From the NCBI RefSeq assembly GCF_054482595.1, contig NZ_CM137008.1: a stretch of DNA of 64,000 nt; one strand, written 5' to 3'. The position numbers were made by a program, and so were the translations under genes. Below, one piece after another: positions 137 through 13,515 of this stretch. A model generated the notes under the pieces. The model ran no database searches, was not told where the DNA came from, and saw nothing but the letters and a program-made list of their open reading frames with translations. Position 1 is the first letter of the stretch; every line of letters begins with the position of its first letter.

Positions 137-1636
137 TTAAGTTCTCCGTGCGATGGGCCTGATTGGGGCTGGTATCTTTTTCTCTTTTGGTTTTTTGATG
201 TCGCGCATCATTTTGGCGAAGCGGCGCATCATGTATGCATAGCGAACAGCTGAGAGAACGTCGTCGTTAAGCTTGACGATTTTCCCGTTTTCATCACGGT
301 GATAGAGGCGGAACTCCTCAAAGAATGGCTCACAGGTGTTGAATACTTTGAAGCGACCGTCGAGCATCATGTCTCGCAATTCAGTGATGCCAGGCTCAAC
401 AGCATTACCGCCATCAGGCCATGTCGCATGCTCCTGCAACATCATAAATCCAGCGTCTGCATACTGCCCTTTGAGCTGCTCACCGCCGCCCTTCTCGTGC
501 TGGTTTCCGTCATGAGGCCATGCTGTTGGCACTTTATGCGCCCATGATTTAACCGCTCCCCATGCCTGAACGGCTGTTTTTTCTTTCGCCTTCCACACGC
601 GTGAAACGTAGATTGTGTCTGCGTCCTTATCCCACCAAATCTGAACCTGCGCCTGCGGGTGATCCCATCCGAAATCCATCCCGCCAATTACGTAGAAGTG
701 ATCAGGACACTCGAACGGCTGACACTTAATCGTCTCTTCCGGTATCTGGAAGATTCGACCACTACCCATCGTAGGAATACCGCGAGCACGCGCCTCTCTC
801 TCATGCTCAGGATAGGATGCGATGATTTGCTCTTTCTGCTCGTCGGTATAGTGCTCAGCGTCATAGATGGTCATGTTGACCACTTTCTGCGACTTGCTGG
901 GATTCTTCAGGAACTTGGTAACAACGTCAGACATCCCCATCAGCGGGGTAAATGTCAGAATTGAGAATTGCCCGTATTTGTTGGTACGGGTAAGACCTTC
1001 GCCATAAATGCTGTATGGTGGCTCTTCGTCAAACCACACGCCGTGGATTGTGTCACCCTGCCAGCGAGCACGGCCTTGCGAGTATGGCTTGAAGTAGCAG
1101 ATTGAAATGCCATCTTCAACGCCATCAGCCGTGTGATGCTTAACCAGAAGATGATCAACAAGGTTCGGAAAGAAAGGAGACTTCTTCCAGCTAATGATGT
1201 CTTCTTTCGGTATGGAACCGTAGCCAGGCTCATCATTCTCTTCGATACGACCGCACAGGATGCGTTGAGTCGTTTTGGTTACAGTCTCGTTTGTCTCTCC
1301 ACCAATCCAGAAGACAACAGGCTCATAGAAACGCTTACCTTTCCACTCACCGCCATATTTACCATCAGCAGGATAGCCTTTTGTGCCCGGATAACGACCG
1401 GTAAGGTGAAACGCGACTTCAGCAGCACCAGTAAATGACTTACCAAGCTGGTTACCAGCCATAAAACATCGCTCTGGATAGTCATGCCCGGCGTCGATGA
1501 ACTCACGCTGCTTGCTGTATGGCGTAAATTCATATAGCAGGTGTGTGTTCCGGTAGTTCTCTTCTTCTTCGAGTAGCTCGAGCAACTCGATTTGCTCTTC
1601 GTCGCTCAGGTTATCAAGAATCGCGTCCAGTTCCAC
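137..1636 (-). CDS. Terminase large subunit (P22 gp2-like)
   Basis: 499 aa ORF; recalled match to P22 TerL; position after terS. Confidence 0.85.
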
Positions 1637-7701: not shown

Positions 7702-8547
7702 TCATGCCGCATCCTCAAAATTAAATCCAAGCTGACATGAAAATGCTTCACATGATTCAGAACACGAACCTGAATCATACTGTCGCATTGATGTCATTCT
7801 TGAGGCTAACTCATCTCTTGATATATCACTAAACAAGGCAATCAGTGATTTAAGTGTATTATTCCCTCGATACATAACCGGTTCCTTTCCTGTTTTTATT
7901 TCTGTATCAAGGATGTTGATAAATGCATCTGCAAGTTCTGGCTCATCCATGGCTGCCAGCGCAACCTTTTGCATACTTTTTTTTATACAGAAAACACAAT
8001 TACCAAGATGCTCCTGTATGCCAAGATCAAACTTCTGCCCACTCCACCAATCAAGCACATCCTGTTTTTCAAAATCGCTTATATCAGCCAGGTACCGAAA
8101 ACCATTAGCCCTTTTAAGCCTGTTTGGTTCATCTGTGCGAATGCCAAGCCATGTGATGTAATTTCCTTTCCCAAACTTTTCCTGACAATATTTGGTGAAT
8201 GGAACAGACTTCATTCTGTCGGTACAGAACGCACCGCCGATATATGGATGTCCGTATTTATTTAACATCCTTTTCCACGGTATAAGATCTGGACCAATAT
8301 CATTGACACCTATCTCTTCATAACTACTGGCCTTCCCCATTTCTGGATTAGGTATTACACGAAGGCAATGTAAGTCTATTTTCCAGTTACTGACGATATT
8401 TCGGATGAACTCATATGTTTTAGGGTGCTCTGCCCCTGTATCCATGAAAACGTAATGCACGTCTTCACCTGACTGTCGCTTTTGCTCCATTAGCCAGAGC
8501 AAATATGCTGACGTCCTGCCACCTGAGAAACTAACGACATTTACCAT
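7702..8547 (-). CDS. PAPS reductase-like / PP-loop ATP pyrophosphatase family protein (possibly NinC-equivalent)
   Basis: N-terminal [16 protein letters not shown]-loop motif; start set at Met MVNVV so it abuts the methyltransferase gene; NinC equivalence not verified. Confidence 0.5.
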
Positions 8548-9071
8548 GCAGCCCTCCTGACGCCCTGCCCGATCGCCATCAATGCCGCTTTGGATACGGT
8601 AGTAAACATCCGTCGAGGACTGATGAACGGTCGCCAAATCAGCAGCATGGAGCCTTTGCTGTTTCCCTTCTTCTCCAGCCCTGTCGATGGTTCGATAAAA
8701 TTAATCCGTCCATCAGTGATGATGCGAACTTCGTCAATACTCTCCAGAGCCTTGCTGAACCATCCGACAGACATATCCTCTGGCACAAGCATCACTACCG
8801 TCTGTCGCTGTTGTATGCACTGCTCAGCGGCTTTTTCCACCCACGGCCTGATATTGCTGTACGGTGGGTTATTCCAGATTGCACCGTGGCTTATCCACTC
8901 AGAATTTAGCGCGTCGTCGGCCTCAGTTAACCAGTGAGCGCACAGAGCATTTTTGTCGCTCGCTGCCGAATCCAGCCAGAATCCAAACTCAATATCCAGT
9001 GCATCAAAAAGCCAAAGCGGCGTTTGCCAGCAGTCCTTGTCGTGTGCTGGCGTATTTGATTTGATAGTCAT
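8541..9071 (-). CDS. Phage Dam-like DNA N6-adenine methyltransferase
   Basis: WQTPLWLFDAL...NPPYS motifs; start set at MTIKSN overlapping ninB stop. Confidence 0.6.
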   Translation of the reverse strand: MTIKSNTPAHDKDCWQTPLWLFDALDIEFGFWLDSAASDKNALCAHWLTEADDALNSEWISHGAIWNNPPYSNIRPWVEKAAEQCIQQRQTVVMLVPEDMSVGWFSKALESIDEVRIITDGRINFIEPSTGLEKKGNSKGSMLLIWRPFISPRRMFTTVSKAALMAIGQGVRRAAW

Positions 9072-9508
9072 GCAGCCCGATCTCCCCATCTCGCTTTCCA
9101 CTCCAGAGCCAGTCTCGCTTCGTCTGACCACTTAACGCCACGCTCTGTACCGAATGCCTGTATAAGCTCTAATAGCTCCGCAAATTCGCCTACACGCATC
9201 CTGCTGGTTGACTGGCCTATTACCACAAAGCCATTCCCGGCAAGGTTAGGAACAACATCCTGCTGCTTTAATGCTGCGGTAAACACACACTTCCAGCTTT
9301 CTGCATCCAGCCAGCGACCATGCCATTCAACCTGACGAGAGACGTCACCAAGGCAAGCCCAAAGCTTTCGATTCTGGTCTAAGCTGCGGTTGCGTTCCTG
9401 AATGGTTACTACGATTGGTTTGGTTGGGTCTGGAAGAATTTGCTGTACCGCGTGAATAGCGTTTTGCTGATGTGCTGGAGATCGAATTTCAAAGGTTAGT
9501 TTTTTCAT
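9068..9508 (-). CDS. ninB: NinB (Orf-family recombination mediator)
   Basis: About 146 aa from Met MKKLTFEIRS with GAGGG-type RBS; NinB-like sequence and position after the helicase gene. Confidence 0.7.
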   Translation of the reverse strand: MKKLTFEIRSPAHQQNAIHAVQQILPDPTKPIVVTIQERNRSLDQNRKLWACLGDVSRQVEWHGRWLDAESWKCVFTAALKQQDVVPNLAGNGFVVIGQSTSRMRVGEFAELLELIQAFGTERGVKWSDEARLALEWKARWGDRAA

Positions 9509-9525
9509 GACTTCCCTCTCCCCCA

Positions 9526-9555
9526 AATAAAAAGGCCTGCGATTACCAGCAGGCC
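9526..9555 (-). terminator. Rho-independent terminator (tR2-like, between helicase gene and nin region)
   Basis: GGCCTGC-N8-GCAGGCC hairpin followed by T-run on the minus strand. Confidence 0.4.
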
Positions 9556-9584: not shown

Positions 9585-11036
9585 TCAGAATCCTCCTTTC
9601 TTCTTGGACTGCGGTTCCTCGCGTTCACGTCGGCGCATTTCAGCAGACTGTTGGTCTGTGTCATAAATAGCGCCATTTGCCTGAATGCAATACACCGTGC
9701 CGGTATTGCCATGACGATTGAGACGAAGGATTAGTTCGGTTTCACCAGGCGGAACACTGTCATCAAAAGCACCTTCACGATGGATCCCCACCCAATAATC
9801 GCAATCCTGTTCAATCTGCCCTGTATCGCGCGAGTCACTTGGTAATGGGCGTTTATTGGTTCGGCTTTCCAGTGCGCGGTTAAGCTGCGTCAGAAGCACA
9901 ACAACGCAATCAAGCTCTTTGGCAAGGTTCTTCAGTCCTTTGGTGATCATGCCGTAAGCAAGGTCGTTGCGATCGGCCTTCTCAGCGGTCATTAGTGTCA
10001 GGTAATCGACCAGAATCATGCCAACACATCCTTTTTCTCGCTTGATTCGACGGCTTTCGCTGACGATTTGAGCCAGAGATAATCCCGGCGTGTCGTCGAT
10101 GTAAAGCAGGTCGATTTCACTCAAGCGATTGGCTGTTTCGATCGCCCTGTTGAAGTCACCATCGTAATCACCCTGATAGCCGTCATCAGCGTCATTTGTC
10201 GCCGGAAGGTAAAAAATATTCGGGTTAACACCTGACTTCTGTCCCACCAGTTTTTCCAGTATCTGGTCACCTGGCATTTCAAGGCTGAACATCAGAGCGG
10301 GCTTTTTCTCATGCACTGCGCAGTTGATTGCCATCTGGCTGTATAGCGTCGTTTTCCCCATCTTAGGGCGAGCGCCAATGACAAACAGAGAGCCTTTCAC
10401 CAGACCTTTCGGTGACAGCATCCTGTCCAGCGATGGGATCCCTGTGCTCATTCCCCGTTGTTCGCCTGATGGGTCAAATCGCTTCTCAAGGTCGCTAACC
10501 CAGTCTTCCATGACCTCACCAAATGAACGAAGGCCGCGACGCGATCCGGTTTTTGCATGGTCTGTCAGTTGCGTGAAAATCGACTGAATAGCTTCGTACT
10601 TCTGCGTTGCAGTCATTCCGTTGCGGGAATAGAGCAATTCCGTCGCTTCAGTCATGCGGTTGATGGCGTAGCGTTCCATTGCGGTTTCACGAACCTGCAT
10701 TGCATAGGCAACGATGTTTGCGGCGCTTGGCGTGTTCTTTGCGATCTCAGCGATATAAGCAAAACCGCCAACAGACGCCGTTAACGATTTACGCTCCAGT
10801 TCATCGAAAAGCGTCAGGCCATCTACTGGCTTTTGCTCCCGGTGCATTCTGGTTATTTCTTCGAAAAGGATTTTGTGTGGCCGGCTGTAAAATGAGTCAG
10901 GCTTCAGCATCGCCAGAACTTTCTGGACGCGCTCACTGCTGTCATCATCCAGAAGCAATCCACCAATCACCGCCTGCTCTGCCTCGATGCTATGGGGCGG
11001 CGCATAAAAATTATCGGTCATCGTGTTCACCCTCAC
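9585..11036 (-). CDS. DnaB-family replicative helicase (P22 gene 12-type)
   Basis: 483 aa; DnaB N-terminal domain and Walker A GARPKMGKT. Confidence 0.85.
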   Translation of the reverse strand: MRVNTMTDNFYAPPHSIEAEQAVIGGLLLDDDSSERVQKVLAMLKPDSFYSRPHKILFEEITRMHREQKPVDGLTLFDELERKSLTASVGGFAYIAEIAKNTPSAANIVAYAMQVRETAMERYAINRMTEATELLYSRNGMTATQKYEAIQSIFTQLTDHAKTGSRRGLRSFGEVMEDWVSDLEKRFDPSGEQRGMSTGIPSLDRMLSPKGLVKGSLFVIGARPKMGKTTLYSQMAINCAVHEKKPALMFSLEMPGDQILEKLVGQKSGVNPNIFYLPATNDADDGYQGDYDGDFNRAIETANRLSEIDLLYIDDTPGLSLAQIVSESRRIKREKGCVGMILVDYLTLMTAEKADRNDLAYGMITKGLKNLAKELDCVVVLLTQLNRALESRTNKRPLPSDSRDTGQIEQDCDYWVGIHREGAFDDSVPPGETELILRLNRHGNTGTVYCIQANGAIYDTDQQSAEMRRREREEPQSKKKGGF

Positions 11037-11901
11037 GAACTTTCAGGTAGGTATTGTCGTTAAGCAGGAAATCAAATCCCTTTTTGTGCCAGACGGTTCC
11101 GCGTTGATGGTTTGGACGCTCTTCGAACATCCATCGGCAATTTTCGCCTACGTAGCTCAAATAATTTCTCCAGTCCTGCATCGTGAACCCATGCCCGTCA
11201 AGCTGGCGGGTTATCACTCCGGCTTTGCGCCAGAACGTTCGGATCTGGTTTTTACGCTTGTCATTCAGTGCGCGGATTCTTGGCGCTTCAGGAAGGATTT
11301 CGTGGTAAGCATCGACAACATCCTGACAGCTGACGGAAGGTTTTTTCTTGTCAGACTTTTTGTCTGCTGTGGCACTCTCTAATACGTCAGTATTAGAGAT
11401 ATTATTTATATTATTGTTTATGGACAACCGTTGGACAACCGTTGGACAATCTCCGCTGAGAGCCGCACCATTACTGGTGTTTGCGTTGGACAACTGTTGG
11501 ACAACCGTTGGACAATTTTTTGCCTGAAAATCGTCATATTTAACGATTGTAAACAGGCTAAATTTCTTCCCCATCGAGCAAATATTAAGCATACCTTTCG
11601 ACTCAAAAGTCCGTAATAAGCTCCGAACTTTGTTGTCGGGGATGAATGTTTCTCTGACCAGCGACGGGCGTCCAGTTATCATCTGACCGCGATCAACAGT
11701 TATCGGACCGATATCCGTATTGACGACAGTAGATTCGTGATTAGCCTTGAGGATTAAGTGAAGCCAAAGATGTACTGCCTGAGAGTCCTTATAGAGCCTG
11801 CTGTCCATAAACTGGCGGTGTATAGAGACATACCCCATACTGGATGCCTCCTGATGTTGTACAGGGTTATGCCTGTAATCAGCTAACTTAACGACGCCCA
11901 T
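11011..11901 (-). CDS. Replication initiator, O-like
   Basis: 296 aa ORF upstream of helicase; contains iteron array inside its coding sequence as in lambda O. Confidence 0.7.
   Translation of the reverse strand: MGVVKLADYRHNPVQHQEASSMGYVSIHRQFMDSRLYKDSQAVHLWLHLILKANHESTVVNTDIGPITVDRGQMITGRPSLVRETFIPDNKVRSLLRTFESKGMLNICSMGKKFSLFTIVKYDDFQAKNCPTVVQQLSNANTSNGAALSGDCPTVVQRLSINNNINNISNTDVLESATADKKSDKKKPSVSCQDVVDAYHEILPEAPRIRALNDKRKNQIRTFWRKAGVITRQLDGHGFTMQDWRNYLSYVGENCRWMFEERPNHQRGTVWHKKGFDFLLNDNTYLKVREGEHDDR
11422..11516. repeat. Origin iterons: two triplets of ~11-bp TTGGACAACCG repeats, followed by an AT-rich stretch
   Basis: Direct repeats read at 11422-11450 and 11488-11516; encode repeated CPTVVQ(Q/R)LS in O. 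Confidence 0.6.
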
Positions 11902-12083
11902 GTTTCACTCCTGCTTTGGCTAGTCTGTAAACACCAACAAGGCGCTCTGCGAACGCCCTGTTATTTGCTGCGGCTACCACTAATCCCTCAGGTGAATCAG
12001 GGTGTCGAATCTCTTCTTTTTCCTGGTATTTCTTACGACGTTTTGTCATAATTACTCCTGTGGATTGATCCAGTCTTTCTACA

Positions 12084-12362
12084 TCAGGCCTCGAAGAATT
12101 CGCCGTTCTTCGGGGCTTTTTCTTTTGTCAGCATTCTGGCTACTTTCTTAGCCAGTTCCGCCAACTCCTCGTCTTCAACACCCCATTCAAGAACAGCCAG
12201 AAGCATTCCCATTTTTGGGATGAAGCTGTCTTTCCATCGCGAAATTTGCGATTCATTAATCCCTAATGCATCAGCAACCTTTCGCTGACCACGTACAGCA
12301 ATTCGATTCAGGATGTTGCTTGTAATTGCATTCGCTTTCTTGCGAGTACTTGTAAGTTGCAT
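12084..12362 (-). CDS. cII: CII-like transcriptional activator
   Basis: From Met MQLTSTRKK; strong similarity to recalled lambda CII (GTEKTAEAVGVDKSQISRWKRDWIPKFSMLLAVLEWGV). Confidence 0.7.
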   Translation of the reverse strand: MQLTSTRKKANAITSNILNRIAVRGQRKVADALGINESQISRWKDSFIPKMGMLLAVLEWGVEDEELAELAKKVARMLTKEKAPKNGEFFEA

Positions 12363-12430
12363 ATGTAAGTATTTCCTTAACAAATAAGAAGTTATGCGCA
12401 TCAACTTATGCGCGTTGTATTCCCGCATTT

Positions 12431-12474
12431 CGGCGGGAATGAGGACCATGACTGTTAAAGAGCGGTGTTACTTA
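12431..12474 (-). promoter_or_regulatory. nutR-like site (boxA CGCTCTTTAAC plus boxB hairpin)
   Basis: Minus-strand boxA-like sequence and TCCCGC-N6-GCGGGA hairpin just downstream of cro; same hairpin recurs upstream of N. Confidence 0.45.
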
Positions 12475-12717
12475 TGCTGCCTGATTCGGTTTTGGAAACA
12501 GGTGTGGCAAATCGGGGCGAATTTCGTAAGCCTTGATCTGCCCTCCAGTGGCGTTAACGATGGCGGTAACTTTCTCTGGAGAGACCAACCCGCCTTTCAG
12601 CCATTTGTGTACTGCTGGCTGCGTTACACCACACTTGTCGGCAAGACGCTTTTGGCTACCGACAATTTTCAAGGCTCGTTGAATTACTAAATTCATGAGC
12701 ATACCTCTTGTGGTCAT
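12472..12717 (-). CDS. cro: Cro-like repressor (HTH)
   Basis: 81 aa HTH ORF divergent from cI across the operator region; true start probably an internal Met. Confidence 0.6.
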   Translation of the reverse strand: MTTRGMLMNLVIQRALKIVGSQKRLADKCGVTQPAVHKWLKGGLVSPEKVTAIVNATGGQIKAYEIRPDLPHLFPKPNQAA

Positions 12718-12732
12718 TACTTATAACCAAAG

Positions 12733-12795
12733 ATAACTCAAGTTATAAAAATTAGCAATAACCTTTGTTATTTTACTTTGGATAACCGTAGTTAT
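12733..12795. promoter_or_regulatory. OR operator region: three ATAAC-N4-GTTAT palindromes
   Basis: Sites at 12733-12746, 12758-12771, 12782-12795, centres ~24-25 bp apart, between cro and cI. Confidence 0.5.
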
Positions 12796-12807
12796 AGATT
12801 TGTGGGT

Positions 12808-13515
12808 ATGAAAACATTCGCAGAAAGACTAAATGCAGCCATGAGCTCAGCAGGGGTATCACAATCACAGCTTGCTGACATGGTTGGAATATCTCAGCCA
12901 GCCATACAGAAGATGTCGTCCGGTAAAACAAACGGATCTCGCAAGATGGTTGAATTAGCCAATGCTTTAAAAGTGCGTCCTGAATGGCTTAGTTCTGGTA
13001 TTGGTGAAATGAGGGATGGTGCACATGAAGAACCATCCAATGTCCGTGAGTCATCTTTAAAAGCTGTGGTATGGGAAGACATTAAAAGAAACGATGACGA
13101 GTTTGTTGCGTTGCCTCTTCTTAACGTTTCGCTTTCAGCTGGAAGCGGTAGCTGCGAGCTAGAGGAATCATCGGAGTTCTCTTTGGTTTTCAGAAAGCAC
13201 TATCTGAAAAAGATGGGAGTATCTGAAAGATCAGCCAAGCTAGTTAGGGTTGTAGGGCAAAGCATGGAACCAACGCTTCACGATGGCGATGTTGTTGGTG
13301 TTAACACGCAAGATACCACAATCAGAGATGGTAAAACCTACGCTATTTGCCAGTCTGATTTGTTACGAGTAAAAACATTAATCGCCACCCCTACATCGGT
13401 GATAATCAGATCAATAAATCGCGAAGAGTACCCGGATGAAGTAATGGATAGAGATGAATTTCATAAAACCGTAAGGATTATTGGCAGAGTATTCTGGTCG
13501 TCTCATAGTTGGTAA
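12808..13515 (+). CDS. cI: CI-like repressor (HTH plus S24/LexA-like autocleavage domain)
   Basis: N-terminal HTH, C-terminal GQSMEPT...DGD motif; start set at first ATG of the TTG-initiated ORF. Confidence 0.8.
   Translation: MKTFAERLNAAMSSAGVSQSQLADMVGISQPAIQKMSSGKTNGSRKMVELANALKVRPEWLSSGIGEMRDGAHEEPSNVRESSLKAVVWEDIKRNDDEFVALPLLNVSLSAGSGSCELEESSEFSLVFRKHYLKKMGVSERSAKLVRVVGQSMEPTLHDGDVVGVNTQDTTIRDGKTYAICQSDLLRVKTLIATPTSVIIRSINREEYPDEVMDRDEFHKTVRIIGRVFWSSHSW

Follow-up and report, generated by a model that had tools for sequence, protein, structure and literature searches.

The genome paper for Salmonella phage L names six imprecise 11-bp TGTCCAACGGA repeats as its likely replication origin (PMC8022706), and the phage L record carries a rep_origin annotation at the place homologous to the locus described here. 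The replication regions of L and P22 can be exchanged only as a whole, at least as an earlier study is cited in the phage L paper (Hilliker 1981, cited in PMC8022706). In phage SPP1, the initiator G38P binds the direct repeats of oriL within its own gene, beside an AT-rich unwinding element; binding has been shown experimentally, and a 356-bp oriL fragment supports replication in vitro (PMC5737612, PMC6316719). Here, we describe a prophage locus in a 64-kb stretch of DNA (referred to at its full length as the window) that has six imprecise 11-bp TGTCCAACGGA repeats inside a gene, and compare it with phage L and with these other systems. It is very likely that the six repeats and their flanking DNA constitute a lambda-like prophage replication origin lying inside the gene of its own initiator, and we infer origin activity from the comparison and from homology to tested systems. 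The origin interpretation given in the initial annotation of this locus is thus supported by sequence comparison, and the repeat type is an ordinary feature already known from phage L.

Within the early right operon, the initiator gene (Table 1) comes after cro, cII, and orf48 and before a DnaB-type helicase gene, with the helicase ORF start overlapping the end of the initiator ORF. Pfam matches in this region are to cII, Cro, S24 repressor, and DnaB, and the ORF order is as in the L and HK022 annotations; an Rfam scan of positions 10900 to 12800 gave no matches, not even to the oop RNA family. The initiator matches phrog_345 ('replication initiation O-like') over residues 1 to 296 (E 2.5e-85), and its gene is 99% identical to those of HK629, HK75, mEp234, and HK633. 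In the protein, a disordered linker connects an N-terminal winged-helix domain with a C-terminal domain, and the AlphaFold model has two confident domains (pLDDT of about 80 to 90 in the N-domain and 82 to 92 in the C-domain) with a low-confidence linker between them. The origin-encoded residues 141 to 188 have a pLDDT below 50 and form this connection, such that the repeats, the AT-rich stretch, and the palindrome together encode the predicted disordered linker. Origin DNA is presumably tolerated in the coding sequence because the encoded stretch is a flexible linker between folded domains.

The initial annotation referred to the gene as O-like, which is apt for its position and function, but not for its N-terminal domain, which is related to SPP1 G38P. 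PF04492 (Phage_rep_O) does not match the window initiator even at E values up to 1, whereas it matches lambda O and P22 gp18, used as positive controls, with E values of 6e-36 and 7e-38, respectively, and BLASTP finds no similarity between the initiator and lambda O (E 4.5). Pfam and NCBIfam scans of the initiator gave no usable family, returning only a sub-threshold DUF7376, and PDB sequence searches with either the window protein or lambda O gave no matches. The N-domain aligns with residues 2 to 112 of G38P with 28% identity over 111 residues (E 8e-13 by BLASTP and 1e-5 by tblastn), and the structures that Foldseek ranks highest for it (CodY, MarR, and TubR) are without exception winged-helix DNA-binding proteins, with weak E values of 0.05 to 0.2. 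The C-domain is 100% identical to that of HK022 O and weakly similar to the C terminus of P22 gp18 (25% identity, E 1e-4), and no similarity to lambda O was found. The type of C-domain tracks the downstream partner gene.

Table 1. Coordinates in the window of the putative origin, its initiator gene, and the adjacent helicase gene
Feature	Position	Strand	Remarks
Initiator gene, 296 aa, O-like by position	11011..11901	-	ORF; phrog_345 match
N-terminal domain coding region, aa 23-127	11521..11835	-	Predicted origin-binding winged helix; recognition helix predicted at aa 89-101
Iteron triplet 1	11483..11515	-	TTGTCCAACGG, TTGTCCAACAG, TTGTCCAACGC; core invariant in 59 distinct relatives
Units of triplet 1	11505-11515; 11494-11504; 11483-11493	-	TTGTCCAACGG; TTGTCCAACAG; TTGTCCAACGC
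Spacer between triplets	11450..11482	-	33 bp, three 11-bp slots
Iteron triplet 2	11417..11449	-	TTGTCCAACGG, TTGTCCAACGG, TTGTCCATAAA; pattern fits both triplets in 56/59 distinct relatives
Units of triplet 2	11439-11449; 11428-11438; 11417-11427	-	TTGTCCAACGG; TTGTCCAACGG; TTGTCCATAAA
AT-rich stretch, candidate DNA-unwinding element	11400..11420	.	Directly after last iteron; 17.5% GC over 11380-11419
Perfect palindrome	11376..11399	.	TCTCTAATAC-tgac-GTATTAGAGA; 10-bp arms, 4-nt loop
C-terminal domain coding region, about aa 190-296	11011..11335	-	Predicted partner-recruiting domain
DnaB-type replicative helicase gene	9585..11036	-	Pfam DnaB E 3.5e-31, DnaB_C E 2.8e-60

Six iterons in two clusters of three had been proposed from the sequence, and all six 11-bp units indeed share the 7-mer TTGTCCA on the minus strand. 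The full 11-mer initially given, TTGGACAAC(C/T)G, is exact in three of the six units and the other three deviate from it at outer positions; the gap between the clusters is 33 bp and not the approximately 40 bp first reported. The units are head-to-tail direct repeats without an inner dyad, and a single 11-bp register accommodates all nine slots (six units plus the 33-bp spacer), with Tandem Repeats Finder reporting a period of 11 in both arrays. The spacer also contains a 5-bp inverted repeat (CACCA-gtaa-TGGTG), which was dropped from consideration, as it is absent in phage L. TTGTCCA occurs 11 times in the window on both strands, compared to 8.5 expected, and six of these occurrences are packed in phase on one strand within 95 bp, for which the chance is approximately 1e-11 (Poisson estimate). 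The repeats are within the coding sequence and translate as NCPTVVQQLSNAN...DCPTVVQRLSINN, as originally noted, and the AT-rich stretch said to come after them is present, downstream in the gene orientation and to the left on the plus strand.

The initial annotation made its reading depend on conservation of the repeats as DNA across related phages, and such conservation is observed. Among 59 distinct relatives the TGTCCA core does not vary at any codon position, and conservation of the AT-rich sequence CAATAATATAA likewise extends to every codon position; third-codon positions just upstream of the repeats vary in 20 to 54% of these sequences. With a period of 11 bp, the reading frame shifts from one unit to the next through all three frames, and because the units shift frame and the core is invariant at synonymous positions, the constraint acts on the DNA and not on the peptide. 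The layout of three 11-bp units, 33 bp, three further 11-bp units, AT-rich stretch, and palindrome is found at the same gene position in phages with five repeat words, as seen by comparing the window with phage L, Cronobacter ENT47670, HK022, Pantoea PA-1, Yersinia 30.14, and Klebsiella ST11-VIM1phi8.1. The spacer is constant in length across these seven phages and five repeat classes, and variable in sequence. Salmonella phage ST-29 also carries the repeats and was left out, its gene being frameshifted in the record. A scan of IMG/VR proteins with the N-domain yielded only near-identical copies (80 of 259), which are not useful for assessing divergence. Searching published full texts for the repeat sequence mostly gave primers from unrelated papers.

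The initiator genes are mosaic, and in these genomes the repeat word is seen to track the N-domain, not the C-domain. TGTCCAA is common to the window, L, and Cronobacter proteins, the N-domains of which are 74 to 83% identical. In HK022 the C-domain is identical, the N-domain is only 49% identical, and the repeat is TTACCAGCA; the Cronobacter gene combines the window's repeats with a Klebsiella-type C-domain. This covariation of repeat sequence and N-terminal domain is consistent with the earlier suggestion of an initiator-origin specificity pair distinct from that of lambda. The mosaic junction with HK022 is exactly at 11421, at the border of the last repeat and the AT-rich stretch, and from 11421 to 9554 the window and HK022 are 98.6% identical, extending through the whole helicase gene, which is inherited together with the C-domain. 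There are also natural chimeras (L094, L127, and L128) in which a window-type N-domain and 3+3 TGTCCAA repeats are joined to a lambda-O-type C-domain (56 to 59% identical to lambda O 177-299, E about 1e-50), with a lambda P homologue encoded downstream. Because such chimeras exist naturally, the module of N-domain and repeats appears able to substitute for the N-domain and ori of lambda O. Homologues number 1603, and natural genes of 274, 296, and 318 aa have one, two, and three triplets, respectively; either two triplets would not be strictly required, or some of the prophages with varied copy number may be defective. About 2.6% of complete E. coli genomes contain a replication module of this type (L/ST64T/Sf6 specificity). 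Initiators of the L/ST64T and Sf6/HK629 types are only 82% identical and have the same repeat core, which bears on the question raised in PMC2629481 of whether they have a common target.

The palindrome following the AT-rich stretch has a different pattern of conservation. At least 11 different perfect palindromes occupy this site among the relatives, with pairing in 96.5% of cells, compared to 63% in shuffles. Both-sided changes are seen in nine of the 10 pairs, and G-U pairs are absent from the inner nine, with none in 153 inner cells despite 51 double changes. The palindrome is thus maintained by compensatory changes and constrained as a structure, and its free covariation points to a structural hairpin rather than a site that is read as sequence. 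It could be taken for an antisense-strand terminator, as the pattern matches and the L record annotates it likewise, yet we do not favor this: the stem is AT-rich with three G-C pairs (-7.5 kcal/mol as DNA), the lack of G-U pairs argues against it, and lambda and P22 have palindromes at the equivalent place in their known origins.

These features suggest how the origin would operate. The N-terminal winged-helix domain would bind the six 11-bp TTGTCCA units and, because there is one unit per helical turn, the bound initiators would form two sets of three aligned along the same side of the DNA. Assembly of this nucleoprotein complex, together with transcription across the gene from the early right promoter, would impose strain and open the candidate unwinding element. 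The 10-bp palindrome would probably be extruded as a hairpin after strand separation, and could stabilize the opening or mark the loading site. The C-domain would then recruit the phage DnaB-type helicase encoded by the next gene, and a separate loader would be unnecessary, as in P22.

Other explanations for the repeats are unlikely to differing degrees. Host DnaA, or some different protein of the host or phage, might bind them in place of the N-domain, in which case they would still serve replication or its control, and the initiator would recognize the origin by other means. The DnaA box consensus is TTATNCACA, and the 9-mer-plus-2 spacing of the repeats is reminiscent of weak DnaA site arrays in oriC; by direct comparison, TTGTCCA resembles the DnaA box TTATCCACA at six of nine positions. 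Repeats of the TGTCCAAC type are also found beside the PF09681 N-domains of Streptococcus and Lactococcus phages, although a distant relationship between the two N-domain families is possible (hhalign probability 61%, E 8e-5), which would account for the shared word with no host factor involved. We nonetheless consider another binder unlikely, as phages of one host group differ in repeat word in step with their N-domains, and recognition by a common host factor would not call for this. A DnaA-box array specifically was rejected, since TTGTCCAAC differs from the consensus at positions 3, 8, and 9, and the repeats covary with a phage protein.

Alternatively, the array could be an initiator binding site at which replication does not start, and which instead has a control role in autoregulation of the helicase by a roadblock, origin pairing, or fork stalling as proposed for G38P at SPP1 oriR (PMC6316719). 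Its location within the operon and upstream of the helicase gene fits such a role, as does a copy number ranging from one to three triplets. However, an AT-rich stretch and a palindrome always follow the array, as they do at the firing origins of lambda, P22, and SPP1 oriL, and the 64-kb window has no second TTGTCCA cluster to act as the true origin, making a purely regulatory function very unlikely. It is scarcely credible that the repeats are simply a duplicated linker peptide or a neutral tandem duplication with no function as DNA, and the comparisons described here already contradict this. At 33 bp, a triplet comprises an integral number of codons, disorder is predicted for the stretch that it helps to encode, and unequal recombination shifts the copy number in 66-bp steps, but the inner period of 11 bp changes the frame from unit to unit, the DNA core shows no synonymous variation among relatives in which the neighboring codons have diverged, and five repeat classes with equal spacing covary with the N-domain. 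Initiator binding at a replication origin is the reading we prefer.

For the window itself, the locus would mark the start of prophage replication and assign the module to the L/ST64T/Sf6 specificity type, and otherwise matters little. The comparison adds that the junction of the recognition and partner modules is exactly at the border of the last repeat and the AT-rich stretch, and that the origin-adjacent palindrome is preserved through compensatory changes. We note that the initiators of Streptococcus and Lactococcus phages, whose N-domain belongs to Pfam PF09681, have the same 11-bp TGTCCAAC repeats, an occurrence that may be new; the enterobacterial and Streptococcus/Lactococcus phage N-domains that share TGTCCAAC have no BLAST similarity. 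We tentatively put forward, without quite expecting it to hold, a wider and undescribed rule in which replisome-organizer genes would all carry 11-bp head-to-tail ..CCA(A/G)C repeats immediately after the winged-helix part, followed by easily melted DNA. It would span the G38P-like family (enterobacterial and Bacillus phages) and PF09681 (Streptococcus, Lactococcus, and Clostridium phages, and Streptococcus satellites). If true, the shared TGTCCAAC and the covarying palindrome would imply an ancient shared mode of origin recognition with a specificity code of two or three bases, and the 11-bp CCAAC pattern could allow the origins of many uncharacterized phages and satellites to be located from sequence alone.

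SPP1, a system with experimental support, encodes in gene 38 an N-terminal domain homologous to that of the window initiator, and both SPP1 oriL and the putative origin in the window lie in the initiator's own gene, directly after the part coding for the N-domain, with 11-bp-phased direct repeats and then an AT-rich stretch. Mapping of the SPP1 356-bp StyI-HindIII fragment onto gene 38 places the 11-bp-phased repeats at the equivalent gene position. The SPP1 repeat word, AAAnGACAC, differs from that of the window, and the C terminus of G38P is a Phg_2220_C domain (PF09524, E 2e-20), which the window protein does not match. SPP1 also requires G39P, a loader encoded by a gene of its own between those of the initiator and the helicase, and has in oriR a further region for binding; the window has neither. 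The SPP1 host is Gram-positive, unlike that of the window.

The lambda-style arrangement recognized in the initial annotation is retained with a different iteron: the origins of lambda (gene O) and P22 (gene 18) are likewise placed centrally in the initiator gene, where it encodes the interdomain linker, and show the same succession of iterons, AT-rich stretch, and 4-nt-loop palindrome. Lambda-type initiators and the window protein are also alike in that the N-domain would set origin specificity and the C-domain the partner. The window N-domain is of a different sequence family from those of lambda O and P22 gp18 (PF04492), and the comparison of iterons that had been recommended shows that lambda and P22 have four units of about 18 to 20 bp, each with an inner inverted repeat, in contrast to the six 11-bp units without a dyad in the window. 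In place of lambda P, the presumed partner is a DnaB-type helicase encoded by the phage, as in P22.

The closest known system is the phage L type, which includes gene 18 of L and ST64T, Sf6 gene 43, and the O genes of HK629, HK75, mEp234, and HK633. The window initiator has 82% amino acid identity to gp18 of L and ST160, with differences in the first ~20 residues. At position 1 of the repeat unit, each of the six units in the window has T, and three of the six in phage L have A; none of these differences has an evident functional consequence. Phage L otherwise has the same 11-bp repeat (TGTCCAACGG[A/T]) in the same 3+33+3 layout, the same AT-rich stretch, the same palindrome save for one loop base, and, as in the window, a DnaB-type helicase gene downstream.

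The repeat array lies in the early right operon of a lambdoid prophage, within the initiator gene, whose 3' end is overlapped by a helicase gene. The initial annotation had placed the repeats inside an O-like coding sequence with an AT-rich stretch after them, and the gene-strand reading agrees, with 17.5% GC across 11380-11419; the peptide repeats it quoted are correct on translation of the ORF. Six units are present as it described, but the full 11-mer is exact in only three. Common to all six is the 7-mer TTGTCCA, which occurs 11 times on both strands of the window (8.5 expected), six of these being the in-phase array copies. Tandem Repeats Finder reports period 11 in each of the two arrays, and the spacer is exactly three unit lengths, giving nine slots in one register with one unit per helical turn. 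With a period of 11, the units within a triplet are each read in a different frame, and the only repeat at the protein level is the whole 33-bp triplet.

Features of the initiator region, and loci compared with it (other contigs numbered separately)
Feature	Coordinates	Strand	Basis or remark
311-aa ORF, downstream of ninB	7702-8637	-	looks PAPS-reductase-like by sequence reading
196-aa ORF, downstream of ninB	8541-9131	-	looks adenine methyltransferase-like by sequence reading
ninB	9068-9526		upstream of the two ORFs within 7702-9131
DnaB-type helicase	9585-11036	-	Pfam
Initiator ORF, 296 codons	11011-11901	-	ORF call
Iteron triplet 1: TTGTCCAACGG, TTGTCCAACAG, TTGTCCAACGC	11515-11483	-	gene-strand reading
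Spacer, 33 bp	11482-11450	-	gene-strand reading
Iteron triplet 2: TTGTCCAACGG, TTGTCCAACGG, TTGTCCATAAA	11449-11417	-	gene-strand reading
AT-rich run	11420-11400		after triplet 2 in gene orientation
Perfect palindrome TCTCTAATAC-tgac-GTATTAGAGA	11399-11376		after AT-rich run in gene orientation
53-aa ORF	11888-12049	-	overlaps initiator gene start by 14 bp
CII-like activator	12084-12449	-	Pfam
Terminator-like hairpin	12086-12118	+	antisense to 3' end of cII-like gene
Cro-like regulator	12472-12717	-	Pfam
S24-type repressor	12778-13515	+	Pfam
Two overlapping ORFs, 136 and 301 aa	13713-14986	+	~200 bp past repressor gene end
Chimeric initiator, L094	1037-2625		IMG/VR
Chimeric initiator, L127	1172-2760		IMG/VR
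Chimeric initiator, L128	8829-7241		IMG/VR
Four contiguous units, L096	2969-3012		IMG/VR contig 2737471821_000012
Five contiguous units, L089	gene nt 323-377		Pseudomonas phage Orimi01

We note several other features of the neighborhood. The 53-aa ORF is the counterpart of orf48 of P22 and HK022, labeled "hypothetical" in some annotations and "tail protein" in others, and its position is kept in all relatives examined. The strong terminator-like hairpin (14 pairs, then a T run) sits where lambda and HK629 have the oop RNA terminator; Rfam has no match in its region. The ORF pair beyond the repressor gene resembles the orfA/orfB transposase pair of an inserted IS3-family element, which we take to be IS2-like.

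The scaffold of three 11-bp units, 33 bp, three 11-bp units, AT-rich DNA, and palindrome occupies the same place within the gene in seven phages, with five repeat words: (T/A)TGTCCAAC in the window, Salmonella phage L, and Cronobacter phage ENT47670; TTACCAGCA(A/G)A in HK022; TTACCAACAGA in Pantoea phage PA-1; GTGCCAACAGA alternating with TTACCAACAAA in Yersinia phage 30.14; and (G/A)TGCCAACA(G/A)A in Klebsiella phage ST11-VIM1phi8.1. An exact-pattern scan of IMG/VR requiring one triplet returned at least 120 contigs, 59 of which are distinct enterobacterial origin segments; both triplets carry the pattern in 56 of the 59, though only one was demanded. TGTCCA is unchanged in all six slots of these segments at any codon position, while 20-54% of them show variation at unit positions 1 and 9-11, in the spacer, and at the third codon positions immediately upstream, which shows that the constraint acts on the DNA. 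Loss of the repeats as DNA across phages, which the initial annotation had named as evidence against its reading, is thus not what we find.

Triplet number is variable, with homologues of 318, 296, and 274 amino acids having three, two, and one triplets, respectively, in steps of 22 codons (66 bp). The homologous proteins P0001 (318 aa) and P0036 (274 aa) are otherwise near-identical to the 296-aa window product, and dozens of contigs carry the one-triplet form, complete Shigella flexneri and Escherichia coli genomes among them. The L096 locus has a 55-bp deletion between triplets, and the resulting frameshift probably leaves its initiator gene dead. The Orimi01 initiator is a distant family member (23% identity) whose units have the core AACCAG(C), with neither the 33-bp gap nor an obvious AT-rich stretch after them.

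PHROG 345 ("replication initiation O-like") covers the full initiator ORF (E 2.5e-85); scans of Pfam and NCBIfam found no family. The lambda-style, origin-within-O description holds for an origin-type array inside an initiator gene, but not for the N-terminal domain (N-domain). PF04492 detects lambda O (E 6e-36) and P22 gp18 (E 7e-38) and finds nothing in the window initiator even at E up to 1, and BLASTP against lambda O gives E 4.5, ruling out an N-domain of the lambda O/P22 gp18 kind. Residues 20-127 are homologous to residues 2-112 of G38P, the SPP1 replisome organizer (28% identity, E 8e-13). The C-terminal domain (C-domain) shows weak similarity to the C terminus of P22 gp18 (25% identity, E 1e-4), which would fit a phage DnaB-type helicase being the partner of each protein. 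An AlphaFold model (14-sequence alignment, mean pLDDT 70.7) has a confident N-domain at residues ~26-125, with a helix-turn-helix and beta hairpin, a low-confidence stretch at 141-188, and a confident helical C-domain at 190-296. In the PDB, the best Foldseek matches of the N-domain are without exception winged-helix DNA binders (CodY, MarR, TubR, and ArsR type), with weak E values (0.05-0.2). The low-confidence stretch between confident domains suggests that codons 129-175, containing the repeats, AT-rich run, and palindrome, encode the N-domain end and a disordered linker.

N-domain identity to the window is 74% in phage L and 83% in the Cronobacter phage, both with the window repeats, and only 44-49% in all phages with other repeat words. 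The C-domains group differently (window and HK022, 100%; Cronobacter and Klebsiella, 80%; Pantoea and Yersinia, 86%), such that HK022 has the window C-domain with another N-domain and repeats, and the Cronobacter phage has the window N-domain and repeats with another C-domain. By blastn, the window/HK022 junction of this module exchange is at 11421, the first base past the last repeat core, from which the two are 98.6% identical through the AT-rich stretch, palindrome, C-domain, and whole helicase gene. The three natural chimeras combine a window-type N-domain (75% identity) and 3+3 TGTCCAA repeats with a C-domain that matches residues 177-299 of lambda O at 56-59% identity (E about 1e-50); downstream, the helicase is replaced by a homologue of lambda P (47% identity, E 1e-70). 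The repeat word thus tracks the N-domain and the C-domain tracks the partner gene, the same domain logic as in lambda O, in which origin binding resides in the N-terminal 162 residues (as cited in PMC2629481). This covariation argues for the O/ori specificity pair distinct from that of lambda that had been proposed.

The array is very probably a replication origin with six sites for the initiator's own N-domain, as judged from sequence comparisons. N-domain binding, presumably at all six, would melt the AT-rich DNA next to them; the phage helicase would be brought in by the C-domain, and the palindrome may also contribute. Some other protein could bind the repeats, although this is improbable given how closely repeat word and N-domain covary. 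Somewhat less probable again is a control or roadblock site that does not fire. The least credible reading is a mere peptide duplication: the whole triplet is indeed repeated in the protein, but the core is held in all six slots irrespective of codon position. The observation in the initial annotation is confirmed overall, and its reading as an origin is supported.

Lambda (GTCAGAGAATTC-tggc-GAATCCTCTGAC) and P22 (a C/G palindrome at the same place) share with the window a palindrome after the AT-rich stretch. The window relatives have at least 11 different perfect palindromes at this position, with 9-10-bp arms and a 4-nt T(G/A)A(C/A/T) loop. Among 17 distinct sequences, pairing is seen in 96.5% of cells, versus 63% in shuffles and 30-53% with the partner column slid, in windows centered on each sequence's best hairpin, which favors pairing; both sides change in nine of the ten pairs, and G-U is absent from the inner nine. 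Despite the centering bias, chance falls far short of explaining why every variant has perfect arms of 9-10 bp at one fixed position. Since the sequence changes freely while Watson-Crick symmetry stays strict, the palindrome points to a DNA structure, either a hairpin on either strand or a cruciform; a sequence-read site or an RNA stem does not fit.

The pattern scan also matched ~35 loci outside the close enterobacterial relatives, mostly of low GC, many with a TGTCCAAC triplet at codon 132-140 of a 260-340-aa ORF with a PF09681 (Phage_rep_org_N) N-domain and a Rep_Org_C or Phg_2220_C C-domain. A tblastn search identifies these ORFs as initiator genes from phages of Streptococcus and Lactococcus and from Streptococcus satellites. 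Six such genes picked by protein similarity alone have 11-bp-phased repeats at the same place, followed by GAGATAGAG-type DNA; the words are TGTCCAA (Lactococcus 53802, S. thermophilus CHPC925, and satellite Javan357), TTCCAAC (S. pyogenes Javan527), TGTCC variants (Clostridium phiCT19406C), and TTGCAAC (pneumococcal phage 11865). When profiles of the two N-domain families are compared, the helix-turn-helix and wing region matches at 61% probability (E 8e-5), which is no more than suggestive of a relationship. We found no published description of the shared 11-bp pattern in a search that took in little of the older phage literature. In the Streptococcus and Lactococcus phage and satellite initiators (IMG/VR L093, L111, L113, L122, L130, L132, L133, L157, L174, L177, and L191; named phages L213-L218), the repeats come straight after the stretch that codes for the N-domain, and the first unit often adjoins an inverted copy, TTGGACA. 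Javan357 (L215) and other Javan satellites have the same kinds of initiator and repeat as full phages of the same hosts, raising the question of whether satellites and helper phages might compete for, or share, origin recognition.

The initiator gene DNA is 99% identical in coliphages HK629, HK106, HK75, mEp234, mEpX2, HK633, and ECP1, ~84% identical to Salmonella phages L, ST64T, and ST160, and 76% identical to ENT47670. The full gene is present at ≥95% identity in 143 of 5,426 complete E. coli genomes, and at least 259 IMG/VR contigs encode an N-domain relative, the 80 examined being near-identical. The phage L GenBank record has a rep_origin annotated at the homologous place; phage L gp18 shares 15% identity with lambda O and 25% with P22 gp18, and the L and P22 replication regions are exchangeable only as a whole (PMC8022706). 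A feature of this kind with the same repeat word is already described, as a prediction rather than an experimental result, and the array is a member of this described origin type; only the wider 11-bp CCAAC pattern and the covarying hairpin might be new. In SPP1, G38P binds direct repeats of oriL within gene 38, adjoining an AT-rich unwinding element, and a 356-bp HindIII-StyI fragment supports origin-dependent replication in vitro (PMC5737612, PMC6316719). The sole StyI-HindIII pair 356 bp apart in the SPP1 sequence delimits gene-38 nt 224-580, at the center of which are five units, GAAACGACAGA, GAAACGACACG, AAAAAGACACG, AAAAAGACACA, and GAAACGGATAA, defined here by 11-bp phasing and perhaps different from the original "AB boxes." SPP1 oriL is thus like the window array in having 11-bp-phased units followed by AT-rich DNA inside the initiator gene.
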